Notes: generated by a model not told the origin, from the sequence alone. A stretch of DNA of 64,000 nt from an uncultured Lachnospira sp. (GCA_944381165.1 CALWKC010000011.1:4225-68224); one strand, 5' to 3'. Shown: positions 1 to 48,273, counted from the stretch's first letter. Program-made: numbers and translations.

Positions 1-492
1 TGGAAGCCGAAAACAAAAAAAACGTTCAGCGTGGCGGCTATCGATGATGCGCTTACGGTGAGACCGGCAAGGTATCAGGAGGCTGAAAAGATAAGTCTTG
101 AGCCTGCGAGGGAAATTGTGTTTGATGACGAGCTGGAGGAACAGCGAATAAACCATAATTATTCTTTTATTATGGAAAATCTTCTGGCAGCTCTGTCGGA
201 GAGAGCTAAGTTTACACTTGAGGAGTTTAACGGCGCTATGAGCCGTATGTATTCCGAAAATATTTTAAAGAACGCCGACTATTTTTCTTTTTTTGTAAAT
301 CTCTGCCAGAAAAAATTTTATGTAATCGGCGGGAAGGAAATGAGCAGCGAAAGTTTTCTTGACGACATATTAAAAAAACATTTTGCAGACAGGCAGCCGA
401 CATCGTTTTCCATTACAGAGTGCAGCACAAAAGTGCTTGAGCTCGCGCCCGGCTGCGAGGTTACAGATGTCATATTTCAGAGAGAAGGGTAA
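1..492 (+). CDS. 3' part of a gene entering from upstream of the window; candidate kleisin-type (MukF/MksF/JetA-like) partner of the downstream SMC-like ATPase
   Basis: Frame 1 is open from base 1 to the stop at 490-492, so the GTG at 31 is probably internal. It is the first of three tightly packed co-directional genes ending in a MukB-like ATPase. The functional call rests on gene order only. Confidence 0.35.
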   Translation, partial: WKPKTKKTFSVAAIDDALTVRPARYQEAEKISLEPAREIVFDDELEEQRINHNYSFIMENLLAALSERAKFTLEEFNGAMSRMYSENILKNADYFSFFVNLCQKKFYVIGGKEMSSESFLDDILKKHFADRQPTSFSITECSTKVLELAPGCEVTDVIFQREG

Positions 493-528
493 GATAATAA
501 ACGCAGTGTGCGCAGAAATGAGGATTTT

Positions 529-1359
529 ATGGACAGCAGAAATTTGGACAGGGCGCTTGATATTGTGTCAAGGCTTATAATGGGTGAAAATGTAAGCGAA
601 AAGGGAGCTGACGCGGCTCTTTATCAGGAATACAGCACAAATGCAGAGGTTTATGATATTGTGCAGATGTCTCTTAAGAAAATGAACCTGAATTTGTATG
701 AGTATAAAAACGCGCTGTATGTCAGCGCGGGGCAGAATAACGCAGTGTTTGGGTACACAAACGAGGAGCTGAAAAAGGAATTAGGAATTAAGCTAAACAA
801 GGAGCTGTATCTTGCATATTTTGTGGTATACAATACGATAACCAGTTTTTATACGGACACTGCTGCGACGACGTATGCTGAGTATGTGCGTATAGAGGAT
901 GTTGTTGAAAATGTAGACAAAGCAATAAACGGCATAATTGATAAAAGCGCCGGAATTGTTCTTGACGAGGTTGAGGAGAACAGTTTTAAGCAGATTGCCA
1001 TGAGCTGGGAGGAGCTTCCGGCGGCAACCGTTGAGGAGCAGTCGGGCGTCAGAGCGGCCAGAAATTCAAAAGCCGGGTTTGTCAAAATGGTGTTTAATTT
1101 TCTCATATCGCAGGAGCTTCTTGTGGAAAATCAGACGCTGTACCCTGGAGAACGGACACAGTTCGATAAAAACGCGGCGGCTTTAAGTGAAAGCTCTGCG
1201 CAGGGGGCGCGCTATTATCCTACCGACCGTTTCCGCGCTCTGATAGAGAATTATTTTGATGATTACAGGGGAAGGTTTTCTCAGCTTTTAATGAGCGATA
1301 AGCAAAAAAACAGCGCGGCTGTCGTCGGTGCGGATTTTCAGGGAGAGAGGGAGGAATAG
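529..1359 (+). CDS. Candidate MukE/MksE/JetB-like (KITE) subunit; otherwise hypothetical
   Basis: ORF 508-1359, with ATG 529 preceded by GAGGA. The stop lies 4 nt before the ATG of the SMC-like gene. Size and middle position fit the F-E-B order of Muk/Mks/Wadjet operons. No catalytic motif seen. Confidence 0.4.
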   Translation: MDSRNLDRALDIVSRLIMGENVSEKGADAALYQEYSTNAEVYDIVQMSLKKMNLNLYEYKNALYVSAGQNNAVFGYTNEELKKELGIKLNKELYLAYFVVYNTITSFYTDTAATTYAEYVRIEDVVENVDKAINGIIDKSAGIVLDEVEENSFKQIAMSWEELPAATVEEQSGVRAARNSKAGFVKMVFNFLISQELLVENQTLYPGERTQFDKNAAALSESSAQGARYYPTDRFRALIENYFDDYRGRFSQLLMSDKQKNSAAVVGADFQGEREE

Positions 1360-1362
1360 CTG

Positions 1363-4300
1363 ATGCCTCAGATAAACAGGATAAGAGTAAATAATGTAAA
1401 ATATAATTTCGGAACACAGGTGTATGATGACTTTATGATGCGCCCGAACTGCAGCAGCATGATTTATGATTTGGCAAACGGAGGGGGAAAGAGCCTTCTG
1501 ATGCTTATGCTTTTGCAGAATGTAATTCCAAACTGTACGCTTGACGAGAAACAGCCTGTTGAGAAGCTGTTTCGTCAGGGCGGAGGCAATACGGTTATTC
1601 ACTCTCTTATTGAGTGGAGGCTTGAGCCGTGCTACAGGAAAGACAATTATAAATACATGACGACCGGTTTCTGCGCGAGAAAGGCGAGGGCGTCAGGCGG
1701 AGCGTCAAAAGAGGAGGAAGGTTTTTCCGCTTCTTCGGGTATTGAATATTTTAATTATGTTATCTTTTACAGAGAATTCGGGGACAACGACATAAAAAAT
1801 TTACCGCTCACAAGCAACGGAGAGAGGATTACATACAATGGTCTCAAGGAGTATCTCAGAAATCTTGAAAAAAATGATTTCAGTGTGTCAGTAAGGATTT
1901 TTGACAGAAAGGGAGATTATCAGAACTTTCTTACACAGTACGGAATTTTTGAGAGCCAGTGGGAGATTATACGAGGTATCAATAAGACTGAGGGACATGT
2001 CAGGACATATTTTGAGACAAATTACAGGACAAGCCGTAAGGTTGTAGAGGATTTGCTGATTGAAGAGATTATCCAAAAATCATTTAACAACCGTCTTGGA
2101 GTTGACGATGATGAGGGAAAAATGGCGCAGACGCTTCTGGACATCAAGGATAAGCTGCTTGAGCTTTCAAAGAAGCATGCTCAGATTGGAAACTATGACA
2201 GACAGGTTGAAGCTGTTAAAGGGTTTGCGGAGTATGCAGCCTCTTTTGAGGATAATTTCCGTCAGAAGCAGGAGCTTGAAAATCAGCTGTATAGCCTGTT
2301 GGTTGAGTGTAAGAGGGCCGTGGTCTTAAATGAAGATGAGGCGGAAAGGTGCGCCGGTCTGCTGGAGAAGATGCAGCAGGAGCTTGACAGCGAGCAGTGC
2401 GCAATTCAGGCGGCGCAGATTGCGGCGGAGGAGAAATCTCTTGCGGGAGTTCGTGAGCTTGTTGCATCGGGCAACGCGCGGCTTGAGAGTTCAGACAGGC
2501 TCTATGCGCAGAAGAGAGAGCAGCTTAAACTTATGGAGTCGGCAAATGACTGTGCGGATTATGTGAGGTATGAAAATTCTCTGGCTCAGCTTAAGGAGAC
2601 GGTAGACAACCGCATGCTCAGTCATCGGAATATCACGTCAAGGCTTCATGATATTGCGGTAAAATTATATGAGAGTACGGAGGCTCAAAAGAAGAATTTT
2701 GAGGATCAGTGCAGTATTTTTGAAAGTCGTGTCACACAGTGCACAGCAGCTCTCGAAGCGGCACAGACAAGGCACAGGGAGTTTTTGAAAAAGCAGACCG
2801 CTGCGGAAAGTCTTGTGAAATTTTCAGGCAAGGAAATAGAGGGGGATGAGAGACAGCTTGCAGATTTAATGGAGAAATGCGGACTTCTGGTGGCTGAAAA
2901 TGCCGGGGCTGAGGCAGACAAGCTGACTGAGGAGCTTGAGCTGCGAAAGCAGGATATACTTCGCTGCGAGAGGGAATATGATGAGCTGAGTGCACAGTCG
3001 GCGAAAGTTCAGGCAGAACTTACAGGTATTGCAGTACGCCGTGATTTTGCTGAGAGCGAGCTTGAACGTGCGGCAAAAAAGCAGAAAATCGCTGAGGAAT
3101 ACCGTGAACAGCTTGAAAATCTTGCCAAAATATATAATGACGGAAATCTTGAACATCTCGACACGCGCATCGGCTCTTTCTATGAAAATGTGAGCCGTGA
3201 ACTTGACGAGACAGAGAAGGAGGCGTCAAGACTCACGGAGTTTATAGACAACGCTTCAGCCGGAACTTATAAATGCAGCGGGGCATACAGAGATAAGCTC
3301 AGAGACTATCTCAAGGCGCGTTATAAGGAGGATGTGGTCGAAGGACATGAGTGGTTTGCGGCGTTAAATGCAGGACAGAAGAGAGATGTGCTTAAGAGAG
3401 CTCCGTTCATTGAGTACAGTTTCATTATAAAAAATGATTTTGAGAGGATAAAAGAGGATATCGCCCTTATGAACTTTGAGCGCGGTGCGTACGCCGTGCC
3501 GATTGTCAGCGAACAGGTGCTTTACGACACAAAGCTTGAGGTTAATAAAGAGCTCGTGGCGTTTGCAATGAAGGATATGGGCTTCTTAAGAGACGAGACG
3601 CGTCTTAAGTCGGAGCTTGACGCTGCGAGGGAAGAGCTTGAAGGCTTAAATCACAGGCTGAATAAGCTAAGAGACAGAAAGCAGGTAGTGTGGGGCGATT
3701 ACCTCTGCGTGCTGCGTCAGTACGCGGCTTCGGACCTTGAAGAGCTGTCGGATTTGAAGAATTTAAAGAAAAGTCTTTCTGAGTGCGAGGAGGATGAAAA
3801 ACGGCTTAAAATGCAGTCGGAGCAGTTAAGGCTGAGCGCTGAAAAATCAGGGGAAATGCTTGAGCAGTCTAAGGCGCAGTATACGCAGGACTGCGGAAGA
3901 CTTGAGCTTCTGCATCTTGTAGCGGGGCAGAGCAGAAGGCTGTCTGAAAAATACGAAAAGCGCGGAGAGGCAGCAAGAGAGGCATCGGAAGCCGAGCAAA
4001 GCGCTTCGGCAGCAAAGGAGGAGGCAGAAAGGTATGCCGGCGAGCTCAGGCAGGCAAAGGATATGCTGGCTTTAGCAAGGGAGAAATTTGAAAAGATAAC
4101 AAGAGACTGGGAAGAAAACTACAGACGGTTTTATGAGATGGAGCCTGAAAATAATACAGAAGCGGAAGTTAATGGCAGTGATTTGTCGGAACTGACGACA
4201 GGACAGCTTGAGAGCCGCTTTTTCGGACTCAGGGAAATTCTGGATAAAGAAACAGTGGATGTTGCTGATAAGGAGGCTCTTATGCAGCACTGCCGCGTGT

Positions 4301-5823
4301 CGATGGAAAAATGCCGCAGGTCGGTTGAGTACAGGGGCTCTGATTTCAGTCAGGTTATGAGAAAGCTGTCTGAAGGCGAGGTTAAAGAGAGCGCTGCCGC
4401 CGAATTAATGGAAATTAAAAACCTTCTCGTTAAAATTGAAAATGAGACCAGAGCACAGCGCGAGGAGCTTGATGCTCAGAATGCACTTATGAACAGACTT
4501 GAGGGAAGCATCGCGCACGGCATACATCAGATTGAGGAGCGCTTCGGCGCATATACTCCCGTACAGTGCGAAAATCCCGAGTTATTTGAAAAACAGCACA
4601 GAGAGCTTGTGGGGAAGCTACGGTCAAACATGAAGGATGTAAAGAAAAGGCAGGCGGAGCAGAGTAAAAAGCTTAAAAATTTATATCTGTGCGAGAGAGA
4701 TTTAGAGCGTATTGTGACGGAGGCGGGCATGGCTGTACCGGATAAAAATGTTTTGCGGCAGGAGTCAGCCGGGGAGCTGAAAACAGATGCAGAACTTTCT
4801 TCATATGAGGCTGTCTCTAAGGAATACGCCAAGTGCATGAAGCTTATGGAACGCCGAAGAGAGGATTTCCTTAAACAGAAACAGAAGCTTGCCGAACACC
4901 TTGTCAGGCTCAATGCTTCAGAACTTGCTGCTCAGATAAGCCAGTCAGCCGCGGCGCCGGGAAATATTGACGAGGCGAGGACGCTGTCAGAGGCACTTCT
5001 TCGGACCAATGAATATATTATTCTTGAAAAGGATAGAATTTCAAAGGGAATAGAGGATATGGAGCAGATTAAGCGCAATTTTGAAAGCCGATGCGTACAG
5101 ACCTGCTGTAATATTAAGACAGAGCTTGACAGACTTCCAAAGCTCTCGACTATTACTATGGACGACGAGATCATTTCAATGATTGGTCTGCAGATTCCAT
5201 ATGTAAAAGAAGAATTTTACGGCGACAGAATGTCCTCGTATATAGATGAGACGGTAACTATGGCGGAGAGCTTTGAGTCAGCCGAGGAGCGGCTTAAATA
5301 TATCAGAAACAGACTTACATGGAAGCGTATGTTTTCTGTGATTGTAACGGATATGAACGCTGTCAGAGTACAGCTTTATAAGCGGGAGAGGATAAAAGAC
5401 CAGAGCCGTTATCTGAGGTATGAGGAGGCGGTGGGCTCAACTGGACAGTCTCAGGGTATTTATATACAGTTCCTGATTGCGGTTATCAACTATATAGCAA
5501 GTATAAATGCGTCGGCCGATGAGACCGAGGTAATCGGAAAGACTATTTTCATAGACAACCCTTTTGGAGCTGCAAAGGATATTTATATCTGGGAGCCTAT
5601 TTTCAAGCTTTTAAAGACTAATCATGTTCAGCTCATTGTTCCTGCCAGAGGCGCAACACCTGCTATTACGGGACGTTTTGACGTAAATTATATTCTGGGT
5701 CAGAAGCTTGTTGATAACAGACAGCAGACGGTTGTCGTTGATTATTACAGCAAAACTGACACGTCTCAGCTTGAATATACGAGAATGGATTATGAACAGG
5801 CAAGCTTTGATTTTTTTGAGTGA
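1363..5823 (+). CDS. MukB/MksB/JetC-like SMC-family ATPase, 1486 aa
   Basis: SD GGGAGGAA precedes ATG 1363. The N-terminal head reads INRIRVNNVKYNF...LANGGGKSLLMLMLLQNVIPNCTL (Walker A, same layout as MukB [25 protein letters not shown]). More than 1000 aa of E/K/L/Q-rich coiled coil is interrupted by a hinge-like segment (RAPFIEYSFIIKND...AYAVPIV). The C-terminal head has STGQSQGIYIQFLIAV (signature-like), TIFIDNPFG (Walker B) and VQLIVPARG. Confidence 0.75.
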   Translation: MPQINRIRVNNVKYNFGTQVYDDFMMRPNCSSMIYDLANGGGKSLLMLMLLQNVIPNCTLDEKQPVEKLFRQGGGNTVIHSLIEWRLEPCYRKDNYKYMTTGFCARKARASGGASKEEEGFSASSGIEYFNYVIFYREFGDNDIKNLPLTSNGERITYNGLKEYLRNLEKNDFSVSVRIFDRKGDYQNFLTQYGIFESQWEIIRGINKTEGHVRTYFETNYRTSRKVVEDLLIEEIIQKSFNNRLGVDDDEGKMAQTLLDIKDKLLELSKKHAQIGNYDRQVEAVKGFAEYAASFEDNFRQKQELENQLYSLLVECKRAVVLNEDEAERCAGLLEKMQQELDSEQCAIQAAQIAAEEKSLAGVRELVASGNARLESSDRLYAQKREQLKLMESANDCADYVRYENSLAQLKETVDNRMLSHRNITSRLHDIAVKLYESTEAQKKNFEDQCSIFESRVTQCTAALEAAQTRHREFLKKQTAAESLVKFSGKEIEGDERQLADLMEKCGLLVAENAGAEADKLTEELELRKQDILRCEREYDELSAQSAKVQAELTGIAVRRDFAESELERAAKKQKIAEEYREQLENLAKIYNDGNLEHLDTRIGSFYENVSRELDETEKEASRLTEFIDNASAGTYKCSGAYRDKLRDYLKARYKEDVVEGHEWFAALNAGQKRDVLKRAPFIEYSFIIKNDFERIKEDIALMNFERGAYAVPIVSEQVLYDTKLEVNKELVAFAMKDMGFLRDETRLKSELDAAREELEGLNHRLNKLRDRKQVVWGDYLCVLRQYAASDLEELSDLKNLKKSLSECEEDEKRLKMQSEQLRLSAEKSGEMLEQSKAQYTQDCGRLELLHLVAGQSRRLSEKYEKRGEAAREASEAEQSASAAKEEAERYAGELRQAKDMLALAREKFEKITRDWEENYRRFYEMEPENNTEAEVNGSDLSELTTGQLESRFFGLREILDKETVDVADKEALMQHCRVSMEKCRRSVEYRGSDFSQVMRKLSEGEVKESAAAELMEIKNLLVKIENETRAQREELDAQNALMNRLEGSIAHGIHQIEERFGAYTPVQCENPELFEKQHRELVGKLRSNMKDVKKRQAEQSKKLKNLYLCERDLERIVTEAGMAVPDKNVLRQESAGELKTDAELSSYEAVSKEYAKCMKLMERRREDFLKQKQKLAEHLVRLNASELAAQISQSAAAPGNIDEARTLSEALLRTNEYIILEKDRISKGIEDMEQIKRNFESRCVQTCCNIKTELDRLPKLSTITMDDEIISMIGLQIPYVKEEFYGDRMSSYIDETVTMAESFESAEERLKYIRNRLTWKRMFSVIVTDMNAVRVQLYKRERIKDQSRYLRYEEAVGSTGQSQGIYIQFLIAVINYIASINASADETEVIGKTIFIDNPFGAAKDIYIWEPIFKLLKTNHVQLIVPARGATPAITGRFDVNYILGQKLVDNRQQTVVVDYYSKTDTSQLEYTRMDYEQASFDFFE

Positions 5824-6073
5824 CAATGGAGGGGCATTTTTCTGATAACAAGTTTACAAGCGACTTAGGCTGTGATAAACTTATGACATGTATGCAGGAA
5901 AGAAAAATAGTGCATATATGCTTAAAATACGACCAGAGAATGTCCGGAAAATTCAATCGAGCTGTTTAATCGGATTTACAGACAATAATATATTAATTTG
6001 ATTTCGGCTGTAAAAATTTGATTTTTGTCGGATTGATTACATAAAATATGATTAGTAAAGGTGGCGTCTGATT

Positions 6074-8767
6074 TTGGATAAATATGAAATGAATCTTAAA
6101 ATTGAACAGATTAAGCAGCTTGCGGCGAAAAAAAATTATAAAGAGGCTGCTGCTATTGCAAAAGATATGAGCTGGCATAAGGTAAAGGATTGGTCCGCGC
6201 TTGCAACGGCAATCAATGTTCAGGAGGCGGTAGGCGATTATGAGGAGGCAAGAGATATGGCTATTCTTGCCTACAACCGCAATCTCGGCGGAAGAAAGCT
6301 GGTGTACAAGCTGACTGAGCTTATGATTAAGCTCAAACAGTTTGATGACGCGGACGGATTGTATGAAGAATATGAGAGAATGTCTCAGCATGATGTGAGC
6401 AGATACGTTCTCTATTATATTCTGAGAAAAGCCGAGGGGGCATCGGATAATGAGCTTGTCGAGATACTGGAGGATTACAAAAATCAGGAAATTGACGAGA
6501 AGTATATGTATGAGCTGGCTGAGCTGTATGCCAAAACCGGAAGAAGGGATGAGTGCGTAAAGGCATGTGATGAGCTTGCTCTTTTATTCCAGGACGGTAT
6601 CTATGTAGAGAAGGCAATGAAGCTTAAACAGGGACTTGGAGCGCCTCTCACTACCATGCAGATTAAGATTATTGACGGCGCACTTAATAAGGAAGAAAAA
6701 GACGAAAAGACTAAGGAAATTCTGTTTGAGCAGCAGCAGGAGCTTGCCCGCATAAGACAGGATGATATAGAGGAGGCTCTGAGCGAGGATGCCGAAAAGC
6801 TTGAGGCAGCAGCTCTTGAGCCGGAGGTTGATTTTGAGGAGTCTGAAAGCGAGCCTTTGGAGCCGGAAAATAACGCGGCGGAGGCTGTGACGCTTGAGGC
6901 GGTTGAGAAGGAGAAAGAGGCGCAGCCGGAAGCCAAGAAACAGAATGAAGAGCAGAATGAGTCTGTATTTAAGATGGCGCACAGGGCTGCTGAGAGTTCC
7001 GCGGCTAACAAGCCGGGGCAGATGCCGGAATCTCTCAAAGAGCTTATTGAGAACGCAAAGAAGAAGATTGAGAACAGTTATGACAGAATGAGCCGTGAAA
7101 ACGAGGAAGAGCGGCTTAGAGAAGAGCGGGCAGAAGCGGAGCGTCATATAAGGGAAAGAGAGGACGCTATGGAAATCGACGCTGTCAGCGTGCCGACCTA
7201 TAATAATATATATGATACACAGAATATACAGGCACAGCTCGCCAAAAATCTCAGTGAAATGCTTGACGACGAGCAGGATTCACAGATATTCAGACCGAAT
7301 CCGGTTCATCCGCAGAATGAGGAGAACGCCGGAGAGGAGACGCAGGATGATGAGCAGATAGAGGGACAGTTAAGTCTTGCAGATTGGATAGAGTCTGTGC
7401 GCGAGCAGAAGTACGGAAACAGGGATACGAAGGAGTACTCAAAAGAAGAGCTTGAGCGCATGCTCGATGAGAAGGATGAAAAGAGCGCTGCTTACGAGAG
7501 AATTATGGAGGAGCAGAAGGCTATCGCACGGGCTTCAGGCACAGAGTTTAACGAAGAAGAGGCCAAGCTTAAAGCCAGAAGCCAGATGATGCTTCATGCG
7601 GCAAAGACAGACTTAGCGATACGCACGGGCAAAGCAGTCCTTAAGCTTGAGGAGGCTGTCAAAGGATTTAAGGAACAAAGTTCGGGCGTACAGCAGGAGC
7701 TTACTGCTACTGTAGAAGCAGATGCCGCTGTTACACAGCCTGACGGGACAGGAACTGACAAAAAGCAGCAGGAGCCAACAGAGGTGTCGCTTGACACTGC
7801 GGAGCTTGTCAATATATCAGAGGAGATGCTTGAAAAGATTGTCAGCCAGGAGCTTGATGCGGCTGCTTCCGAGCAGGAGGCAGAGCAGGACAGCGGTGTT
7901 GTGGGCGAGCTTGTCGAGGAGGAGAAGCCGCGCAGAATAAAACCGGAGCAGGTTAAGAAAGAGGAGCCGGTTGTAGATGATATTGAGCAGACGGTTGATG
8001 ATAACAGAAAGTTAAGCGGAGACCTTGCAAAGATTTTCAGAAAGTACAGAGAGATGCCGGGGCTTGAGAGCCAGCTTGTCGAATATTTTGATACACTCGA
8101 CGAGGAGATGCGTCTTGCGAACTCTTCACGCGGAAATATTCTTATTTCAGGAAATTCAAGCTCGGACAAGACTGATTTGGCAAGAACTATTGTCAGAGCT
8201 ATCAATCATTTGTACCCTGACAATCCTAAAAAGATTGCGAAAACCACAGGTGACAGTATAAATCACAGAGGAATAAGCAAGGCTATGAGTAAGCTCAGAG
8301 GAACTGCTCTTATTGTTGAGGGAGCAGGGTCTATACATCCTAAGCGTATTTCGGAGATTATGGAATGTCTTGAGCAGGATACAGACAGAATGATTGTTAT
8401 TTTTGAGGATTCAGATGCGGAGATGAATGTTCTGCTTAATTTTAATCCTGATTTGACGAAGAAGTTTAATCACAGAATTGTGCTTAAACAATATACGGTA
8501 AACGAGCTTGTTGAAATGGCCAGAAAGTTTGCCCGCAAGCGTCAGTATGAGGTTGATGACGACGCACTGCTTGAATTATATTTAAAAATTGATAAGCTTC
8601 ACAGTGTAACAGATAATATTCGTCTGGATGACATTAAGGAAATTATAAATAAAGCCATAGCCCATTCCGAGAAGCGCGCTTCAAGGAGATTTTTCGGCGG
8701 TATAAAGAAGAAACGCGGTGAAAACGGCGATATATTCTTCCTGTCTGAGGCTGATTTTAAAGATTGA
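6074..8767 (+). CDS. TPR-like N-terminus, long acidic low-complexity linker, C-terminal SpoVK/CbbX-type AAA+ domain with degenerate Walker A and B
   Basis: TTG 6074 lies 9 nt after AAAGGTGG. The C-terminal ~230 aa align by eye to SpoVK: NILISGNSSSDKTDLARTIV vs HMIFKGNPGTGKTTVARILG; GTALIVEGAGSI vs GGILFIDEAYSL; LLNFNPDLTKKFNHRIVLKQYTVNEL vs FLSLNPGLQSRFPISIDFPDYSVTQL. Confidence 0.65.
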   Translation: MDKYEMNLKIEQIKQLAAKKNYKEAAAIAKDMSWHKVKDWSALATAINVQEAVGDYEEARDMAILAYNRNLGGRKLVYKLTELMIKLKQFDDADGLYEEYERMSQHDVSRYVLYYILRKAEGASDNELVEILEDYKNQEIDEKYMYELAELYAKTGRRDECVKACDELALLFQDGIYVEKAMKLKQGLGAPLTTMQIKIIDGALNKEEKDEKTKEILFEQQQELARIRQDDIEEALSEDAEKLEAAALEPEVDFEESESEPLEPENNAAEAVTLEAVEKEKEAQPEAKKQNEEQNESVFKMAHRAAESSAANKPGQMPESLKELIENAKKKIENSYDRMSRENEEERLREERAEAERHIREREDAMEIDAVSVPTYNNIYDTQNIQAQLAKNLSEMLDDEQDSQIFRPNPVHPQNEENAGEETQDDEQIEGQLSLADWIESVREQKYGNRDTKEYSKEELERMLDEKDEKSAAYERIMEEQKAIARASGTEFNEEEAKLKARSQMMLHAAKTDLAIRTGKAVLKLEEAVKGFKEQSSGVQQELTATVEADAAVTQPDGTGTDKKQQEPTEVSLDTAELVNISEEMLEKIVSQELDAAASEQEAEQDSGVVGELVEEEKPRRIKPEQVKKEEPVVDDIEQTVDDNRKLSGDLAKIFRKYREMPGLESQLVEYFDTLDEEMRLANSSRGNILISGNSSSDKTDLARTIVRAINHLYPDNPKKIAKTTGDSINHRGISKAMSKLRGTALIVEGAGSIHPKRISEIMECLEQDTDRMIVIFEDSDAEMNVLLNFNPDLTKKFNHRIVLKQYTVNELVEMARKFARKRQYEVDDDALLELYLKIDKLHSVTDNIRLDDIKEIINKAIAHSEKRASRRFFGGIKKKRGENGDIFFLSEADFKD

Positions 8768-8794
8768 TAAAACTAATTGAGTGGAGGAGAATAA

Positions 8795-10783
8795 ATGAGT
8801 AAAATTGAAGAAATGGCGGTAAATGCTATAAGGGTTTTGTCTGCCGATGCTATTCAGAAAGCGAAATCAGGACATCCGGGACTTCCTTTAGGTGCGGCGC
8901 CTGCGGCCTACGAACTTTGGAGCAGACATATGAAGCACAATCCTGCAAATCCTGAGTGGAAAAACAGGGACAGATTTGTTCTGTCAGGCGGGCATGGCTC
9001 TATGCTCCTGTATTCACTGCTGCATTTATTCGGCTACGGAAATCTTTCCGTTGATGATATTAAGAATTTCAGACAGCTCGATTCGCTTACACCGGGGCAT
9101 CCTGAGTACGGACATACTGTCGGTATAGAGGCTACAACTGGACCTTTGGGACAGGGAATGGCTATGGCAGTAGGAATGGCTATGGCAGAGGCGCATCTTG
9201 CGGCAGTTTTTAATAAGGACGGCTTCCCTGTTGTTGACCATTATACTTATGTTCTGGGCGGAGACGGCTGCATGATGGAGGGCATTTCGTCGGAATGCTT
9301 CTCTCTTGCCGGTACGCTGGGACTTTCAAAGCTTATTGTACTCTACGATTCAAACAATATTTCAATAGAGGGAAGCACAGATATAGCGTTTACAGAGGAT
9401 GTCATGAAGCGTTTCGAGGCGTTTGGTTTCCAGACAATAGAGGTTAAGGACGGAAATGATTTGAACGCGATAGGCGCTGCGATTGAGGAGGCAAAGGCTG
9501 ATAAGGAGAGACCTTCACTCATCAAAATTAATACTCTCATTGGCTTCGGCTGTCCTGCAAAGCAGGGTAAGGCAAGTGCGCACGGCGAGCCTCTGGGCGA
9601 GGAAAATGTTGCCGCGTTAAAAGAAAATATAGGCTGGCCTTGCAGCGGTGATTTTGAAGTGCCAAAAGAGGTTTACGACCACTATAATGAGTTATCAGAG
9701 AAACTTGCTCAGGAAGAGGAAAACTGGAATAAGCTGTTTGACGAGTACTGCGAAAAGTATCCTGAGATGAAACAAAAGTGGGATGATTATTATAACGGAT
9801 ATGATTTGTCTGAATTGTTCAATTCGGATGAGTACTGGGCTAAGGCAGAAAAGCCGGAGGCGACGAGAAATACTTCAGGTATACTGTTAAATCTTATAAA
9901 ACAGCATATGCCTAATCTTGTGGGCGGCTCTGCCGACCTGGCGCCTTCAAACAAAACCAACATGAAGGATGCGGGCGACTTTTCAAGGGATAATTATGCC
10001 GGCAGCAATTTTCATTTTGGCGTAAGAGAGCAGGCAATGACCGCAATTGTCAACGGTATAGCGCTTCACGGAGGTTTAAGACCTTTTGCTGCTACATTCT
10101 TTGTTTTCAGTGATTACACCAAACCGATGGCAAGACTTACCTCTATTATGAAGCTTCCTGTTATATTTGTGTTTACGCACGACAGCATCGGTGTTGGAGA
10201 GGACGGGCCTACGCACGAGCCTGTTGAGCAGCTGGCAGCATTCAGGTCTATGCCGAACTTTACAGTATTTCGTCCGTGTGACAGGGTTGAGACTGCCGCT
10301 GCGTGGGAGTATGCGATAGAGTCTGAGTCTGTACCTACGGGACTTGTGCTCACCAGACAGAATCTTCCTCAGCTTAAAGGCTCATCAAAGGAGGCGCTCA
10401 AAGGAGGATATATCATTGACGACAGCAATAAGGCGGAGCCTGACGCTATTATCATTGCCAGCGGCTCTGAGGTCTCTCTTGCCATTGAGGCTAAAAAGCA
10501 GCTTGCCGGCGAGGGAGCAGACGTGCGTGTCGTAAGCATGCCGAGCATGGATGTGTTTGAGGAGCAGACCGAGGATTACAGAAATTCAGTTCTTCCTCCA
10601 AGCTGCCGCAAGAGAGTGGCGGTTGAGGCTCTTTCAGATTTCGGCTGGTACAGATATGTCGGACTTGACGGAAAGGTTGTTTCAATGAAGGGCTTCGGAG
10701 CTTCAGGCCCGGCTGAGCAGCTTTTTGAGAAGTTTGGTTTTACTCCTGAAAATGTAGCCGAGGCAGTAAGAAGTATACTCTGA
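8795..10783 (+). CDS. tkt: Transketolase
   Basis: [27 protein letters not shown]...[35 protein letters not shown] and GEDGPTHEP motifs. 662 aa. Confidence 0.95.
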
Positions 10784-10890
10784 AAATAAAAACTGTCTTA
10801 AAGTAACAGTTCAGTCCGCGCCATTCGCAAAGCCGCGCTGCAGCTTATGGCTGAACTGTTACATCATAAAAAATCGTCATATTTTTTGGC

Positions 10891-10919
10891 TTGCAATATT
10901 ATACCAATAGAGATATAAT
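10891..10919 (+). promoter_or_regulatory. Sigma-A-type promoter for the alcohol dehydrogenase gene
   Basis: TTGCAA (10891-10896), 17-nt spacer, TATAAT (10914-10919), about 65 nt upstream of ATG 10986. Confidence 0.55.
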
Positions 10920-10985
10920 AGAAATACAGATTGTCAGTAATTTAACAATCCATGAATTTTATTAAGATTTTGGAGGTATTTTATT

Positions 10986-12197
10986 ATGACACGTTTTACT
11001 TTACCGAGAGATTTGTATCATGGAAAGGGCTCATTGGAGGCGCTTAAGACATTAAAAGGTAAAAAAGCTATTATCTGTGTCGGCGGCGGTTCAATGAAGC
11101 GTTACGGATTTCTTCAGAAGGCAGAGGATTATCTGAAGGAAGCCGGAATGGAGGTTAAGCTGTTTGAGGGAATCGAGTCAGACCCTTCTGTTGAGACGGT
11201 TATGAAGGGTGCCCAGGCTATGAGCGAGTTTGAGCCTGACTGGATTGTTGCAATCGGCGGCGGCTCACCTATCGATGCAGCTAAGGCAATGTGGATAAAA
11301 TATGAATATCCTGACACGACATTTGAGGATATGTGTAAGGTATTCGGACTGCCTGAGCTGAGGACGAAGGCTCATTTCTGTGCAGTGTCATCTACATCCG
11401 GAACGGCAACAGAGGTTACGGCGTTTTCTATTATAACAGATTATCAGAAGGGTATTAAGTATCCTATAGCTGATTTTGAGATTACGCCTGATGTGGCTAT
11501 CGTTGACCCTGAACTTGCAGAGACAATGCCTCCTAAGCTCGTTGCACATACGGGTATGGATGCAATGACGCACGGCATTGAGGCTTATGTATCTACTGCA
11601 AACAGCGATTATACAGATCCTCTTGCGCTTCACGCTATCATGATGATTAGAGATAATCTTGTAAAGTCTTATAACGGAGATATGGAGGCAAGAGATGCTA
11701 TGCATAACGCTCAGTGTCTCGCCGGTATGGCATTCTCAAATGCGCTGCTTGGTATTGTACACTCAATGGCACATAAGACCGGTGCTGCGTTTGAGGGCGG
11801 ACATATAATTCACGGAGCTGCGAATGCAATGTATCTTCCTAAGGTTATCCGCTTTAACTCAAAGGATGAGACAGCCGCAAAGAGATATGCATACATAGCT
11901 GACTTCCTTAAGCTCGGAGGCAATACAACAGATGAGAAGATTGATAATCTTATTGCCATGCTGCGCAAGATGAATGATGACCTGAACATTCCTCAGTGCA
12001 TAAAGAATTACGGAGAGGGCGGTCTTCCTGCTGAAACGGGAATTGTTCCTGAGGATGAGTTCTTAAAGAAGCTTCCTGATATTGCAGCTAACGCTCTTCT
12101 TGATGCATGTACAGGTTCAAATCCTCGTCAGCCAAGCCAGGAGGAGATGGAGAAGCTTCTTAAGTGCTGCTATTACGATACAGAGGTTGACTTCTAA
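10986..12197 (+). CDS. Iron-containing (group III) alcohol dehydrogenase
   Basis: SD GGAGG. GGGSPIDAAKAM and the His cluster VHSMAHKTGAAFEGGHIIHGAANAM. 403 aa. Confidence 0.9.
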   Translation: MTRFTLPRDLYHGKGSLEALKTLKGKKAIICVGGGSMKRYGFLQKAEDYLKEAGMEVKLFEGIESDPSVETVMKGAQAMSEFEPDWIVAIGGGSPIDAAKAMWIKYEYPDTTFEDMCKVFGLPELRTKAHFCAVSSTSGTATEVTAFSIITDYQKGIKYPIADFEITPDVAIVDPELAETMPPKLVAHTGMDAMTHGIEAYVSTANSDYTDPLALHAIMMIRDNLVKSYNGDMEARDAMHNAQCLAGMAFSNALLGIVHSMAHKTGAAFEGGHIIHGAANAMYLPKVIRFNSKDETAAKRYAYIADFLKLGGNTTDEKIDNLIAMLRKMNDDLNIPQCIKNYGEGGLPAETGIVPEDEFLKKLPDIAANALLDACTGSNPRQPSQEEMEKLLKCCYYDTEVDF

Positions 12198-12327
12198 ATT
12201 TATACGCTGCTTCTGATGATTTTATAGCACGCTGTACTGATAAATGATTATAATATAGTGATACGGCGGTTTTATACCGCATGACAGGGCACGCAGACAG
12301 ACTGACAGACATAATAATTTTATGTCG

Positions 12328-12356
12328 GGCAGGATGATGTGTGTCCTGTCTTTTTG
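12328..12356 (+). terminator. Rho-independent terminator after the alcohol dehydrogenase gene
   Basis: GGCAGGA - 9-nt loop - TCCTGTC followed by TTTTTG. Confidence 0.6.
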
Positions 12357-12469
12357 TATTTCGTTGAAAGCAGGTCGGGGGCTGTGATAGAATATCAATA
12401 TAAAAAGTGAAAAAAATAAAACAAAATGCGGTTTTATTACGTATAAGGTATAAATAGAGGGAGGAATAG

Positions 12470-13081
12470 ATGGACACCACCAGAGAACTGCATTCTAAAA
12501 AATTTTCCGCCAGACAGTTGGTAGCGCGAGTGTTTGAGACGGACCAATACCTTATCCGTCAGATTCTGGAGCAGGATGACAAGGAAGCGGCGAGCGTCCT
12601 TATTGAGAGGTATTATAAAACGGTTTATCGAGAGATATATATAAAGACATCCGACGAAGAGCTTTCTCTTGACCTTACTCAGGAGACATTTATCGCTGTG
12701 CTTCGTGCGCTTCGTCAGTTTGATGATAAAAAAGCGTCGTTTAAGACGTGGATTATAAGGATAGCCCAGAATAAGGTTATCGATTACAGGAGAAGCAGAC
12801 AGAATCATGAAGCTCTTATGACAGATGTGCTTGAGGGGTATGACAGGGCTGCAAATGATAATATTGAGGAGAATGTCCTTAACCGCATTGCAAATGAAAA
12901 GGTGAAATCAATTCTTGAAACACAGGATAAAGAGCTGCAGACAATATTTATTATGAAGGCACAGGAGGGATATACATTTTCGGAAATTTCCCAAAAAACA
13001 GGAATAAGTGTCGGCGTAGCTAAGAACAGGTACTATAAGTTTGTCAAAGAAGTCAGAAAGGAGATGCACGAATATGAATAA
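12470..13081 (+). CDS. ECF-type sigma-70 family RNA polymerase sigma factor
   Basis: SD GGGAGGAA. Region 2-like DLTQETFIAVLRALRQFD...WIIRIAQNKVIDYRR. Region 4 HTH YTFSEISQKTGISVGVAKNRYYKF. Confidence 0.85.
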   Translation: MDTTRELHSKKFSARQLVARVFETDQYLIRQILEQDDKEAASVLIERYYKTVYREIYIKTSDEELSLDLTQETFIAVLRALRQFDDKKASFKTWIIRIAQNKVIDYRRSRQNHEALMTDVLEGYDRAANDNIEENVLNRIANEKVKSILETQDKELQTIFIMKAQEGYTFSEISQKTGISVGVAKNRYYKFVKEVRKEMHEYE

Positions 13082-14180
13082 AGTGAAATATCCTGACAAA
13101 AAAGAGATTCAAAGACAGATTTGTACAATTATAGACCGTTCCCAGATTTTTGACGAAAAAGATGACAGTCAGACCTTCACGGAGGTAAAACCTGTAAACA
13201 GAACGAGTTCATATTCAAAGGCGTTTTTTGCTGTGGTAAAGACCACAGCTTCGGCGGCGGCAGTAGTACTGGCAGTCTTTTTTGCAAGGGGCTTTATAAA
13301 GTCAGGCTCAATTATAGGGCAGCAGGCGATGAATACCGGTGCGAACAGTCTTGTCTATGAACAGCTGCAGGAAAGTGCCAGTGACAATACAGTTTCAGAC
13401 AGTGTGGATATGGATTTGGCAGTCGGGGAAAGCTCGGGCAGCCGCGAGCAGGTTGTAAATGAAGCCGTGACTGTAAAATATGACAAATACAGCAGGACGG
13501 TAATGGCTGAAGGGAACAATACGGAGCTTGCACATATTAACGGAAGTTATCCGCTGGTATATGCTGACGGGGAAATACTTGAGTATATAAGGAGCAGCTA
13601 TGAGCTTGAGACCGAGCAGATTTATCTGGATGTGTGCGAAAGGTACAGAAACTATTATAATGAGACCGGGAATAAAAGCGGTGATGCGGCTGTCAGTTTC
13701 AACTCAGTTTATTCTCGCTGCGAGTATCTGAGCGACAATGTCATATCGTTTTACAGCAATTATAATGAGAACTATTATAATGAGGACATCAATATTTCAA
13801 CGGTGAGAATTTACGGTGCAAATTTTGATACAGTTGAGGACAGAAAGCTGTCGTACAGTGATTTATTTGTGAATTATGACACAGCTATGCAGTGTATAGC
13901 ACAGTCTGTATATAATGAGATGAAGCTGAAATCGTTCACGGGCAGTGTGAGAGAGGACTATCTGACACAGGAAAATATTGCTGCACGAATTGAGCAGGAC
14001 AATAATTTTTATTTTACTTCTAACGGTATTGTGGTGTGCTGCAATGATTATTTGAAATCAGAGGAATTGGAAAACGGACCTATGCAAAGCGCGGAGGCAG
14101 TAAGCAGCGTTTTAGTTCCGTTCTTTGAACTCAGGGATAACGGGGTTATATTTAACACGGATTATATTAATTTTAATTAA
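13074..14180 (+). CDS. Putative membrane-anchored anti-sigma factor (RsiV-like architecture: short cytoplasmic N-terminus, one TM segment, large ectodomain)
   Basis: ATG 13074 overlaps the sigma gene stop (ATGAATAA). TM segment AFFAVVKTTASAAAVVLAVFFA. The Y/N-rich ectodomain resembles DUF4163/DUF3298-type domains by eye only. Confidence 0.5.
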   Translation: MNKVKYPDKKEIQRQICTIIDRSQIFDEKDDSQTFTEVKPVNRTSSYSKAFFAVVKTTASAAAVVLAVFFARGFIKSGSIIGQQAMNTGANSLVYEQLQESASDNTVSDSVDMDLAVGESSGSREQVVNEAVTVKYDKYSRTVMAEGNNTELAHINGSYPLVYADGEILEYIRSSYELETEQIYLDVCERYRNYYNETGNKSGDAAVSFNSVYSRCEYLSDNVISFYSNYNENYYNEDINISTVRIYGANFDTVEDRKLSYSDLFVNYDTAMQCIAQSVYNEMKLKSFTGSVREDYLTQENIAARIEQDNNFYFTSNGIVVCCNDYLKSEELENGPMQSAEAVSSVLVPFFELRDNGVIFNTDYINFN

Positions 14181-14230
14181 ATAATTTATAGTGTGAAATC
14201 TTGAGGATAAATGCAAAAAGGGGAAGGTAT

Positions 14231-15199
14231 ATGAAAGAAAACACATATTATCTTAATATGGCAAAGAGAGTACTGGTTGAGGTGAAAAAGAGCGTCGTCG
14301 GGAAAGACGAGATAATATGCAAAATTATGATGGCGCTTTTGGCAAGAGGACATGTTCTCATAGAGGATATTCCAGGTGTGGGCAAGACAACAATGGCGCT
14401 TGCGTTTGCAAAAGCTCTTGGTCTGGAATGCAACAGGGTGCAGTTTACTCCTGATGTAATGCCGTCGGACATAGTCGGCTTTAATATGTATAACCGTGAA
14501 AAAAACGTATTTGAGTATAAAGCAGGAGCGGCGCACTGCAATATTTTTCTTGCTGACGAGATAAACAGGACATCGCCGAAAACTCAGTCGGCGCTTCTTC
14601 AGGTTATGGAGGAGGGGCGTGTCAGTGTTGACGGCGTCACTATGAAGCTTCCTGACCCGTTTATGGTAATTGCCACACAGAATCCGTTCGGCTCCGTGGG
14701 GACTCAGAAGCTTCCGGAATCACAGCTTGACAGATTTATGATAAGAATAACAATGGGTTATCCCTCAATAGAGGATGAGGTCAGTATTATGAAGGGAAAG
14801 GCGCAGGTTGCTCCTAACACGATTGCCTCGGAAAAAGTAATTGACGAGGAGGATTTTATTGCAATAAGGGAGCTTGTTGATAATATTTATGTAGATGACA
14901 GCGTTTATGAGTATGTAGCAAAGCTTGCGGACAGGACAAGAAGGTCGCCTGATATTCTTCAGGGAATAAGTCCGAGAGGAAGTATTGCTGTAATAAATAT
15001 GTCCAGAGCAGAGGCGTTTTTAAGAGGCAGGGAGTATGTGCTTCCGTCTGATGTACAGTTTGTTTTAAATGACACAATGGCGCACAGAATTATTTTAAAT
15101 AAAAGCCTTAAACGAGGTCATATAACAGAGGAAAGTGTTATAGAAGAGATCTGTAAAAGTGTTGAGGTCCCGAAAATCGGTGTGAAAGGAATATTGTGA
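14231..15199 (+). CDS. MoxR-family AAA+ ATPase
   Basis: SD GGGGAAGG before ATG 14231. Walker A PGVGKTTMA. Walker B and sensor FLADEINRTSPKTQSALLQVMEE. Confidence 0.9.
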   Translation: MKENTYYLNMAKRVLVEVKKSVVGKDEIICKIMMALLARGHVLIEDIPGVGKTTMALAFAKALGLECNRVQFTPDVMPSDIVGFNMYNREKNVFEYKAGAAHCNIFLADEINRTSPKTQSALLQVMEEGRVSVDGVTMKLPDPFMVIATQNPFGSVGTQKLPESQLDRFMIRITMGYPSIEDEVSIMKGKAQVAPNTIASEKVIDEEDFIAIRELVDNIYVDDSVYEYVAKLADRTRRSPDILQGISPRGSIAVINMSRAEAFLRGREYVLPSDVQFVLNDTMAHRIILNKSLKRGHITEESVIEEICKSVEVPKIGVKGIL

Positions 15200-16278
15200 G
15201 AATACGAATATTATTATATTTAATTTGTCTGGCGGGGGTTGTTGTCTTAAACTGTGTCTATGTTGACTACCAGTTTATGCTTATGCTTCTTATGCTTATA
15301 ATAGTTACGGCATTTTCATATATAATGTTTGCCGTGTCGAGAATCGGCATGAAGCTTTTTGTAAAGCTGGATAGAAACGTAGTTTCTTTAGACGATAAAA
15401 TAGACATTAAGGTTAAGGTCGTCAGTAAAAATCCTGTGAAACTTGCGTGGGGAAAGCTCGAAATTCAGGTGATGTATTCAAACGACAGCAGTGTTGAGAC
15501 GTACAGTGCATGGGTGAACGCAGGCTCTCGCCGGGAGGTGACTGTTTCCTTTACTCCGAAGCACTGCGGAACTGTAAGTGTGTGTCTGAGAAAGCTCGGC
15601 TTAAGAGACTGCCTTAAGTTTTTCAGAGCGCAATATGACTATAATAGTGTCAGAAAAGCAGTTGTGTTTCCGAAAAGGGTTGGCAGCGGATATGCCGGAA
15701 GAGATTATCAGAATCAGGAAGAGGATTATATAATGTCATTTCTTGAGACAGATAATACAGAAGTTTTGGATTTAAGGAGTTTTCAGGAGGGAGACCCGAT
15801 GAACAGAATTCACTGGAAACTCAGTATGAATTCGGAAGAATTAATAGTTAAGCAGTACGGGGAGGAAGTTGAAAACAGAAATTTTATTCTTGTCGATCTG
15901 ACAAAAACAGATGACGGAAAATTCAGGGAAGTGCTTGATTTGATTTATCAGGCTGCGTATTCTGTGGGAAGTTTTTATGTGGAGAATAGGGCGGCGGCAA
16001 GATTTATAGTCTGGGACGGTCAGGAGGATGAGGTGCGTCCTTTGGATTTTCAGGACGAGAAAAGTCTTGAAAATGCTATGTATGAGTTAATGTGTATCAG
16101 GTGTGAGAGAGACTCACTGCTTCATCTTGATTACGCCGGCGTGCAGCAGAGCATTATATCCGGTCAGAAGCCTGTTCTCATAACGGCTCAGGAATATAAG
16201 AGTGATATTTATGATACTGTCAATGTTGTAAACGACAATTTAGAGGATATTATCAGTGCGTTGGGCGGCGAGCGTTAA
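15196..16278 (+). CDS. DUF58 family protein (MoxR partner)
   Basis: The GTG start overlaps the MoxR stop (GTGA). Two N-terminal TM segments. DLRSFQEGDPMNRIHWKLS motif typical of DUF58. Confidence 0.8.
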   Translation: MRIRILLYLICLAGVVVLNCVYVDYQFMLMLLMLIIVTAFSYIMFAVSRIGMKLFVKLDRNVVSLDDKIDIKVKVVSKNPVKLAWGKLEIQVMYSNDSSVETYSAWVNAGSRREVTVSFTPKHCGTVSVCLRKLGLRDCLKFFRAQYDYNSVRKAVVFPKRVGSGYAGRDYQNQEEDYIMSFLETDNTEVLDLRSFQEGDPMNRIHWKLSMNSEELIVKQYGEEVENRNFILVDLTKTDDGKFREVLDLIYQAAYSVGSFYVENRAAARFIVWDGQEDEVRPLDFQDEKSLENAMYELMCIRCERDSLLHLDYAGVQQSIISGQKPVLITAQEYKSDIYDTVNVVNDNLEDIISALGGER

Positions 16279-16326
16279 AAATGCAAACAGACTGCCTCAT
16301 GATGATGCTAAAAGGATTTGGGTAAA

Positions 16327-37937: not shown

Positions 37938-38153
37938 TCAGAGCGTCTCACATTCGCGGGCGCGCTCTAAAAGATATTTATACCGTTTTTGCTCGGAATT
38001 GACCTGGTAAATGTAGCAGTCAATCAAATCAGGGTCTGTGGCATTGTCAAAGTTTGAGTAGGCTGCATTTAACGCGTCTTTCGTCATATTGATTTCGTCT
38101 TTCAGATATTTTTCATTATAAGTAACGGGAGTATTTTTTTTCTTAAAAAACAC
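37938..38153 (-). CDS. yaaL: YaaL/DUF2508 family small sporulation-associated protein
   Basis: 71 aa. DLIDCYIYQVNSEQKRYKYLLERAR pattern typical of DUF2508. SD GGAGGAAAGGAGG. Confidence 0.65.
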   Translation of the reverse strand: MFFKKKNTPVTYNEKYLKDEINMTKDALNAAYSNFDNATDPDLIDCYIYQVNSEQKRYKYLLERARECETL

Positions 38154-38471
38154 AATAAAAACCTCCTTTCCTCCTAAAATACTTTTTAATTTTTTCTGAT
38201 AAGGACAATATGCAAAGGTGGCATACCTGCATATATATCCGGCTGATGCAGTGTTGTTTGTTGTTTTAGTTCAAGTATATCCAAAAATGGAGAAATTATA
38301 CAAAACATGAGTGATTTTATACTAAATAACTTTAAAAATAAAACACACATAAATAATAACACTCATGATAAAATAAATATTATAAGTATATTATGTTAAA
38401 AAAATAACAATAGTATGTTGTATTTTTTAAATCAGAGAGTATAATTATATGTCAGAAAAGGGTATAACTCT

Positions 38472-38846
38472 ATGAAAGAAGGAATAATTATGTTATTTGA
38501 AAAAAAGACACCCGAAGAAAAAATGGAAAAGCTTGTACATAAAAGGGAGTGGGCACGGCTTGCGGAATATGTGTACGGCAGCCGGGAGACAAAACTCGCT
38601 CTGGCGCAGGCTCTGGCAGGCTCTGACGACAGCAGCTGCATAGATATTCTGCTTCGTCTTGCAGATGCGGCGATTGCCTCTGGGGAGGATGATGTTATGA
38701 CAGCAACCTGCGAGACCCTTAAGAAAGTAGGAAATGACCATGTTACGGCTGATTTGCGTGAAATTATGCTAAAACTTCCAAAGGAAAAGGAAGCATTAAA
38801 AGAAGAAATCAGCTCAACTATACAGATACTTCACAAGAAACCTTGA
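38472..38846 (+). CDS. Hypothetical protein, helical-repeat (HEAT-like) appearance
   Basis: ORF with a plausible ATG at 38490 after GAAGGA. No recognisable motif. Confidence 0.4.
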   Translation: MKEGIIMLFEKKTPEEKMEKLVHKREWARLAEYVYGSRETKLALAQALAGSDDSSCIDILLRLADAAIASGEDDVMTATCETLKKVGNDHVTADLREIMLKLPKEKEALKEEISSTIQILHKKP

Positions 38847-38958
38847 TTAAAGGCGATAAGTCGGTTTTCAGCACGGACGGAGAATTAAGGTTGAGAAATA
38901 TTTATGCCGGATAAAGCCGGCAGAAGTAGATACGATGCCGTTTCGGCGGCAGGATTAT

Positions 38959-38990
38959 ATACCGCGCTGTTTGCAGCGCGGTATTCTTTA
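38959..38990 (+). terminator. Rho-independent terminator
   Basis: ATACCGCGCTG - TTTG - CAGCGCGGTAT followed by TCTTTAT. Confidence 0.65.
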
Positions 38991-39093
38991 TATGGAGGGA
39001 AAATCTGTGTTTTAATTCCGGCAATTAGATTTGACTCTGTCATGGATAAATAATGTTTTGTATATTTTTTGTTTAAAATTAATTTATATGGTA

Positions 39094-40789: not shown

Positions 40790-40812
40790 CGTACATACAG
40801 AGAGGGTGAGTT

Positions 40813-48269: not shown

Positions 48270-48273
48270 TAGT

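Follow-up and report, generated by a model that had tools for sequence, protein, structure and literature searches.

A Wadjet type III jetABC locus without a linked JetD nuclease in Lachnospiraceae, a candidate domesticated chromosomal SMC complex

Introduction

What job does a defense motor of the structural maintenance of chromosomes (SMC) type perform where no nuclease accompanies it, does it organize the chromosome or silence plasmids that it leaves uncut, and what would an AAA+ protein encoded next to it contribute? These questions are raised by an operon at the edge of a 64,000-nucleotide stretch of DNA (the window) from an uncultured Lachnospira sp. (GCA_944381165.1 CALWKC010000011.1:4225-68224), which holds the 3′ end of jetA and the complete jetB and jetC genes of Wadjet type III, with no linked gene for the nuclease JetD. 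Wadjet types II and III are barely characterized, and the origin of MukBEF and MksBEF from defense SMC complexes is a current hypothesis with few examples. We moderately favor the view that the locus encodes a nuclease-free type III Wadjet derivative, domesticated into an MksBEF-like chromosomal SMC complex.

Results

The operon belongs to Wadjet type III

The three genes are tightly packed on the plus strand, with gaps of 36 nt between jetA and jetB and 3 nt between jetB and jetC, and a spacer of 250 nt separates jetC from the next long open reading frame (ORF) (Table 1). This arrangement had been noticed in an earlier reading made from the sequence alone (the original prediction), and the motif strings quoted there were found in the translation. 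The middle gene had been given 283 aa; a mechanical ORF from GTG 508 to 1359 does exist, but gene calls on identical contigs and the N termini of homologues use ATG 529, which is most likely the true start. Full-length jetA encodes 502 aa and begins 1,017 nt upstream of the window (7622-9130 on scaffold L001, described below). The G+C content of jetABC, 0.43 to 0.48, is the same as that of the remainder of the window.

TABLE 1 Positions of the jetABC genes and of the downstream neighbor in the window
Feature	Position	Strand	Basis
jetA 3′ end (type III kleisin-position subunit)	1..492	+	Last 163 codons; PADLOC JetA3 PDLC00560
jetB (type III KITE-position subunit, DUF6063), 276 aa	529..1359	+	PADLOC JetB3 PDLC00571, Pfam DUF6063
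jetC (type III SMC-like ATPase), 1486 aa	1363..5823	+	PADLOC JetC3 PDLC00581
Putative promoter region of the TPR-AAA+ gene, inside the jetC-downstream spacer	5853..5943	+	Two sigma-70-like sites, transcript contig starts
TPR-AAA+ neighbor, 897 aa	6074..8767	+	Pfam TPR_19; AlphaFold2 model and Foldseek of C-terminal domain

The family assignment was made with PADLOC models. The JetA fragment in the window matched JetA3 with an E value of 2.3e-47 (profile positions 343-508 of 511) and the full-length protein with 4.9e-226, JetB matched JetB3 (E 3.8e-104) as well as Pfam DUF6063 (E 1.5e-43), and JetC matched JetC3 from end to end (1884.7 bits, profile positions 1-1473 of 1473). By these matches the genes are jetA, jetB, and jetC of Wadjet type III, in that order, and the family is already represented by the PADLOC JetABC3 models. 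A literature search on DUF6063, on Wadjet with Lachnospiraceae, and on Wadjet without JetD found no description of this jetABC clade.

It is extremely improbable that the 1486-aa protein is instead a Rad50/SbcC-type ATPase or a canonical Smc. A weak coiled-coil match to canonical Smc (NCBIfam TIGR02168, SMC_prok_B) speaks for it, reaching 21 bits against a cut-off of 567, whereas the JetC3 match spans the whole protein, the partner genes are of the JetA3 and JetB3 families, and the JetC signature reads STGQ, like STGE in MukB. Moreover, neither the ATPase nor its neighbors matched any Rad50/SbcC family of Pfam or NCBIfam, and no SbcD/Mre11 or ScpA/ScpB was found among the neighbors of jetC. 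The original proposal of a Muk-, Mks-, or Wadjet-type operon, rather than Smc-ScpAB or Rad50/SbcC, was thus borne out by the JetABC3 models.

The JetC profile fits an SMC layout, and its Walker B motif is atypical

The conservation and composition profile of JetC fits an SMC layout, with conserved heads at residues 1-290 and ~1250-1486, a conserved middle at ~650-750 whose place fits that of the hinge, and arms between heads and middle that are poorly conserved and rich in E, K, Q, R, L, and A. All 77 JetC proteins aligned share, without change, the Walker A motif DLANGGGKS, the signature AVGSTGQSQG, and the Walker-B-like FIDNPFG. At the Walker B position, type III JetC carries D-N-P-F-G/S and not D-E (window 5554-5568, residues 1398-1402), as surveyed in 77 Lachnospiraceae JetC and in two JetC from JetD-bearing Bacillales operons (L083 and L084). 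Since D-N also occurs in the JetD-bearing Bacillales proteins, the usual catalytic glutamate is missing family-wide and not just in the JetD-less clade, and no conserved substitute for it was evident in the type III JetC examined.

Both heads of the ATPase had originally been aligned by eye with those of MukB. When the JetC family was compared with Escherichia coli MukB by hhalign, the C-terminal register was reproduced, weakly (JetC 1350-1460 and MukB 1357-1463, E 5e-4, probability 31%; STGQSQG/STGEAIG, FIDN/FLDE, and VQLIVPA/MQLIIAA), but nothing of the N-terminal head was recovered past the obvious Walker A motif. The gene order had likewise been equated with both jetA-jetB-jetC and mukF-mukE-mukB; the former was confirmed by PADLOC, while resemblance of JetA to MukF and of JetB to MukE was undetectable by hhalign. 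No window protein matched the Pfam MukB, MukE, or MukF models. Thus, on sequence grounds, membership in the Muk and Mks families proper is unsupported and a place of JetABC within Wadjet type III is supported. JetC and E. coli MukB (L085 4327-8787) are both exactly 1486 aa long and barely alignable; the equal length looks like a coincidence and may have encouraged the earlier comparison by eye.

The folds of the two smaller subunits were approached by profile and structure comparison. Family hidden Markov models of JetA, JetB, and JetC, run against all PDB sequences, returned nothing significant beyond coiled-coil noise, and the JetA C terminus gave a weak kleisin hint against the Rad21 C-terminal winged helix (E 0.24). 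An AlphaFold2 model of JetB reached a pLDDT of 49.6, its confident part being a winged-helix-like unit at residues 1-65; in Foldseek, ranks 2, 3, 7, and 9 went to JetB (8dk1_F and 8as8_C, chains from the JetABC structures of Pseudomonas aeruginosa and E. coli), ScpB, and MukE, with E values of 0.2 to 0.5. The model was built from a shallow alignment of 24 sequences and is of low confidence, so this KITE ranking is a hint and not evidence.

No JetD is linked to the locus

The original prediction had expected jetD after jetC, and searches of the window found no Toprim nuclease there. The expectation holds for other Wadjet types but not for type III. A tblastn search of a plasmid collection with JetC returned two distant relatives, on megaplasmids of Pontibacillus and Bacillus bombysepticus, and both operons run jetD (346-347 aa, JetD/DUF2220), jetA (~505 aa), jetB (DUF6063), and jetC (1519-1705 aa). 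Because type III jetD precedes jetA, its absence after jetC is uninformative, and the informative DNA is that upstream of the window.

This DNA was obtained through an exact JetC protein look-up, which yielded two sequences with 100% identity to the window, the ENA scaffold L001 (over 15,823 nt) and the Logan contig L002 (over 9,283 nt). The order on L001 is signal recognition particle (SRP) RNA-dnaX-ybaB-recR-jetA. The SRP RNA is of the large bacterial type (Rfam RF01854, 184.6 bits), lies directly before dnaX at L001 4581-4880, ~3.8 to 4.1 kb upstream of the window start, and is preceded by a promoter of perfect sigma-70 consensus, TTGACA-17-TATAAT. The Toprim protein encoded before jetA, where a JetD-like gene would have made this an ordinary Wadjet system, proved to be RecR: it is 198 aa long, has all RecR domains (helix-hairpin-helix, zinc finger, Toprim, and C-terminal motif), and did not match the PADLOC JetD models. 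Farther upstream on L001 lie an AAA_14/DUF4143 ATPase gene (3116-4405, ~4.2 to 5.5 kb upstream of the window), which PADLOC classes as candidate defense family PDC-S01 (E 1.5e-111), and, beyond it, a DDE transposase fragment.

A rival reading starts from the position of recR: a Toprim protein at the canonical jetD position might have taken over a JetD-like role for JetABC. Of 60 assessable loci, 48 have the gene directly upstream of jetA and three more have it no farther than three genes away; the 67-nt spacer before jetA includes a Shine-Dalgarno sequence, and no hairpin or terminator in it is significant (z = -0.19). Against this stand the standard nature of the protein, its lack of any JetD model match, and the survival of jetABC in at least 8 species loci that have no recR close by. 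The arrangement of scr (the SRP RNA gene), dnaX, ybaB, and recR is classic and near-universal in Firmicutes, so a standard RecR within it has its own reason for being there; the Toprim domain of RecR is not known to be a nuclease. The idea is attractive only by position, and we regard it as very improbable. An apparent exception to the recR linkage, locus L035, was rejected as an ORF-calling artifact.

JetD itself was sought in several ways. As a positive control, the JetD proteins of the two Bacillales operons were recovered by the PADLOC JetD3 models with E values of 3e-71 and 4e-90. The PADLOC JetD models found no match among 56 ORFs of the window plus 8.6 kb upstream, nor among 121 representative unclassified neighbor ORFs, which sample up to four genes on each flank of jetABC at 80 species-level loci. 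In tblastn searches with both JetD3 proteins, the window and a set of 82 loci yielded no more than noise (best E 4.4) and 80 further metagenome loci yielded nothing, and a metagenome scan seeded by the same two proteins gave no confirmed relative. These data indicated that a JetD/Toprim nuclease is missing from the jetABC locus, with no linked JetD in any of 160 loci.

The locus is vertically inherited and under strong constraint

A JetC alignment, used to scan one genome per GTDB species, confirmed jetC loci in at least 497 species-level genomes. The best 80 of these, with JetC identities from 97% down to 36%, are almost all from Lachnospiraceae, including Lachnospira, the Eubacterium eligens group, Butyrivibrio, Roseburia, Bovifimicola, and Diplocloster; among the matches listed, the closest is an uncultured Eubacteriales metagenome-assembled genome (97%) and the closest cultured one is Lachnospira hominis (59%). 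The arrangement dnaX-ybaB-recR-jetABC, followed by the TPR/AAA+ gene, recurs across the family, and in the Lachnospira group transketolase comes after the TPR-AAA+ gene. Five loci labeled Desulfovibrio piger, Bacteroides sp., or Thermoflexaceae (L013, L020, L023, L038, and L077) have typical Lachnospiraceae synteny and are probably mis-binned or contaminated.

Co-divergence was analyzed in 48 species with complete dnaX, recR, jetA, jetB, and jetC. Pairwise identities of JetC and DnaX were correlated with r = 0.93, a value that 0 of 999 Mantel permutations reached, and those of JetA and JetC with r = 0.96. No JetC relatives were found in IMG/VR viral contigs, and the plasmid relatives were just the two JetD-bearing Bacillales systems. 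The ratios of nonsynonymous to synonymous substitution (dN/dS; Nei-Gojobori, seven closely related pairs) were 0.02 to 0.07 for jetA, 0.03 to 0.06 for jetB, 0.05 to 0.12 for jetC, ~0.1 for the TPR-AAA+ gene, and 0.03 to 0.09 for dnaX; one near-identical pair with very few substitutions gave 0.35 for jetB. Thus, jetABC is vertically inherited at a fixed housekeeping position, and the purifying selection on it equals that on dnaX in strength. The patchy, mobile distribution typical of defense-island systems was seen neither in the synteny nor in the Mantel test nor in the viral contigs, and the original description as an accessory module does not suit a locus that is syntenic, vertical, and constrained rather than sporadic or mobile.

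The same data bear on whether the locus is a decaying, non-functional Wadjet remnant. Decay would fit the absence of JetD, the very low RNA signal described below, and a jetC with in-frame stops in one locus (L058). However, dN/dS stays at 0.02 to 0.12 across the three genes, the ATPase motifs are invariant, and of 81 loci that contain a jetC ORF, 78 have the gene at full length, across species down to 36% identity, two of the other three being cut at contig ends and the third being L058. The selection data exclude decay, which we consider very improbable. In L058, from a goat-rectum Lachnospiraceae metagenome-assembled genome, in-frame stops interrupt jetC (10001-14443) in the first coiled-coil arm, and no stretch of N accompanies them; either the gene is a pseudogene or the assembly is wrong, and this is the sole such case among 79 complete loci.

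Transcription is low and the downstream gene may have its own promoter

Expression was read from assembled contigs of four gut metatranscriptomes, so absolute levels and transcript ends are merely indicative. Transcript coverage of jetB and jetC was very low but non-zero (depth 0 to 7), against a modest depth for dnaX-ybaB-recR, 6 to 17 for the TPR-AAA+ gene, 43 to 58 for transketolase, and ~35,000 for the SRP RNA in the best-covered run (X1). Two sigma-70-like sites lie in the spacer after jetC, at L001 14491-14519 and 14521-14549 (window 5853-5881 and 5883-5911), and contigs of two independent runs start downstream of them, at L001 14575-14581 (window 5937-5943). These data are suggestive of transcription of the TPR-AAA+ gene from its own promoter, in keeping with the original remark that a TPR/AAA+ gene with its own apparent start signals comes next. 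A 47-aa ORF directly after jetC (5826-5969), called by a gene finder on identical contigs, was rejected as a candidate gene: its detection is confined to relatives of 89% identity or more, it overlaps the putative promoter, and it is probably no gene.

The downstream gene encodes a TPR protein with a CbbX-like AAA+ module

The downstream protein has an N-terminal TPR domain (residues ~1-190, 40 to 75% identical across the clade), an acidic, length-variable linker of ~490 aa, and a C-terminal AAA+ module (~683-897). An AlphaFold2 model of this module (~215 aa) reached a pLDDT of 82.7, and its best Foldseek match was CbbX (E 4.6e-10, TM score 0.54), followed by RuvB, p97, and Vps4. AAA_lid_6 was present on homologous fragments of the module, and the NCBIfam matches were all sub-threshold (SpoVK, 49 bits against a cut-off of 423; EccA, 40 against 467; CbbX, 24 against 459). 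The host had originally been taken for a spore former; the SpoVK score was the sole sporulation-like hit, and the claim found no support in the scans made. The relatives of the window organism are Lachnospira and the Eubacterium eligens group. A word-indexed homologue search with the AAA+ domain profile recovered Lachnospira fragments alone and no distant relatives.

Throughout the Lachnospira clade the Walker A motif of the module is degenerate, GNSSSDKT (window 8141-8164, residues ~690-697), with Asp in place of the conserved Gly, whereas distant clade members keep GxxxxGKT; the Walker-B-like motif is a conserved hhhhED instead of hhhhDE. The module in this clade may accordingly be a weakened ATPase or a pseudo-ATPase, to judge from its motifs. 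The AAA+ core and lid fold match the CbbX/SpoVK/EccA clade, and the combination of an N-terminal TPR with a C-terminal CbbX-like AAA+ module resembles the architecture of EccA. The downstream protein differs from that clade in its ~490-aa linker, degenerate Walker A, hhhhED motif, and sub-threshold scores, and the surroundings of its gene hold no genes for type VII secretion, Rubisco, or sporulation.

The TPR-AAA+ gene is next after jetC in 58 of 65 assessable loci, and of the 8 loci that have lost the recR linkage, 5 still have the TPR-AAA+ gene beside jetC. When the TPR domain served as the seed, all 62 of 62 loci had jetC just upstream, which is weak independent evidence because these loci are close relatives. 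The synteny makes the protein a possible accessory factor of JetABC.

A domesticated chromosomal complex is weighed against retained defense

The reading that we moderately favor would run as follows. In an ancestor shared by much of the Lachnospiraceae, jetABC would have become fixed right behind the SRP RNA and the replication and recombination operon dnaX-ybaB-recR, to be inherited vertically from then on; JetD would have been lost, and JetA at the kleisin position, JetB at the KITE position, and the ATPase JetC kept intact. The three proteins would still assemble into an ATP-driven, DNA-entrapping, loop-extruding SMC complex, which, lacking the cutter, would handle DNA uncleaved and serve an auxiliary role in chromosome organization or segregation like that of MksBEF and MukBEF, and the TPR-AAA+ protein may load, unload, or remodel it. 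Such a history would be an independent domestication of a defense SMC. The original prediction had left a choice between a nuclease-less Mks-type complex and a variant with another effector; the syntenic, vertical, and strongly constrained locus shifts the balance toward the former, and the effector version is kept as a rival.

That rival holds that the locus still defends against plasmids or other mobile DNA, with an output other than JetD. JetABC could silence or compact small circular DNA without cutting it, as Smc5/6 does, or it could work with an alternative effector, either the TPR-AAA+ neighbor or an unlinked nuclease acting in trans. Every sequence relative with a known role is a plasmid-restriction system, low constitutive expression is typical of defense genes, the PDC-S01 candidate defense gene lies within 5.5 kb upstream of the window, and the TPR-AAA+ gene keeps company with jetC even where recR is gone, as the counts above illustrate. 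However, the AAA+ module has the fold of a CbbX/SpoVK-type remodeler and no nuclease domain, its Walker A is degenerate in the clade of the window, and its gene is probably transcribed separately. Defense systems do not typically show vertical inheritance throughout a family, a fixed locus, and dnaX-like dN/dS, and the activation of JetD needs type-specific protein contacts (10.1101/2025.03.10.642339), with no JetD linked to any of the loci searched. We consider continued defense possible but doubtful.

Several points weigh against the domestication reading. Type III Wadjet is biochemically uncharacterized (10.1101/2025.03.10.642339), and the D-N at the Walker B position makes the ATPase chemistry of type III JetC atypical. 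The kleisin and KITE labels of JetA and JetB derive from the Wadjet family assignment and not from folds that were seen. The low transcription of jetABC would be unexpected for a major condensin, although it is compatible with an auxiliary one. A motif search found no canonical Smc in the fetched loci, a result that covers the loci only and is silent on genome-wide Smc-ScpAB. The searches for JetD covered the loci as well, so that JetD or another nuclease may be encoded elsewhere in the genome, and a conserved position alone would be compatible with a long-retained defense function.

Comparison with known Wadjet, Mks, and Muk systems

Wadjet type III (represented by Bacillus thuringiensis and by the Pontibacillus and B. 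bombysepticus operons) shares with the window locus the JetA3, JetB3, and JetC3 families, the tightly packed jetA-jetB-jetC order with products of ~500, 250, and 1500 aa, the DNPFG Walker-B-like motif, and the STGQ/SGG signature region. The window locus differs in having recR and not jetD before jetA, in an identity to the Bacillales proteins of ~26%, in the JetC heads only, and in being chromosomal, syntenic, and vertical across the family where the others are sporadic or plasmid-borne. The TPR-AAA+ gene beside jetC was found in neither of the two Bacillales operons examined.

P. aeruginosa MksBEF is regarded as a derivative of JetABCD after loss of JetD and acts in chromosome organization (PMC10586767). 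Like the window locus, MksBEF (without MksG) is a kleisin-KITE-SMC operon of Wadjet ancestry with no Toprim nuclease. It relates to type I Wadjet, however, and not to type III, no sequence relation is detectable past the ATPase head, and MksBEF is described as scattered by horizontal transfer while the clade of the window is vertical and syntenic. E. coli MukBEF shares the three-gene order, the coincidental length of the SMC subunit, and an alignable C-terminal head; it differs in the D-E at Walker B, and the window locus has no Pfam Muk matches and no detectable counterparts of the E and F subunits.

A fuller proposal, which we put forward only tentatively, is that of an undescribed chromosomal SMC system in a large part of the Lachnospiraceae, consisting of a nuclease-less type III motor fixed beside dnaX-ybaB-recR and a dedicated TPR-linker-AAA+ loader, unloader, or regulator. 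If this proposal is right, the locus would be an independent, datable repeat of the defense-to-condensin transition proposed for MukBEF and MksBEF, and its complex would be the first of the SMC type to have a CbbX-type AAA+ protein as a partner. Either way, nature has set up an experiment in which one motor is paired with JetD on plasmids of Bacillales and lacks it in an abundant family of commensal gut bacteria, where it is a core-like, vertically inherited locus. Annotation pipelines keyed on JetA, JetB, and JetC would mislabel such loci as anti-plasmid Wadjet, which matters for the predicted genetic tractability of Lachnospiraceae.

Other features of the window

Elsewhere the window carries core genes, among them tkt, uvrC, hprK, whiA, aroA, and citrate synthase. 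A typical MoxR-DUF58-transglutaminase cluster occupies 14201-18687, with a MoxR-type AAA+ ATPase (AAA_3), a DUF58 protein, and a 789-aa transglutaminase-like protein, and is preceded by genes for an extracytoplasmic function-type sigma factor (12470-13081) and a DUF3298 protein. The segment at ~38000-52000 has a G+C content of 0.35 to 0.39, compared with ~0.44, and encodes a TadA/VirB11-type secretion ATPase (40813-42075) along with several ORFs without a family match; its composition and gene content would fit a Tad/Flp-pilus-like island or one acquired horizontally.

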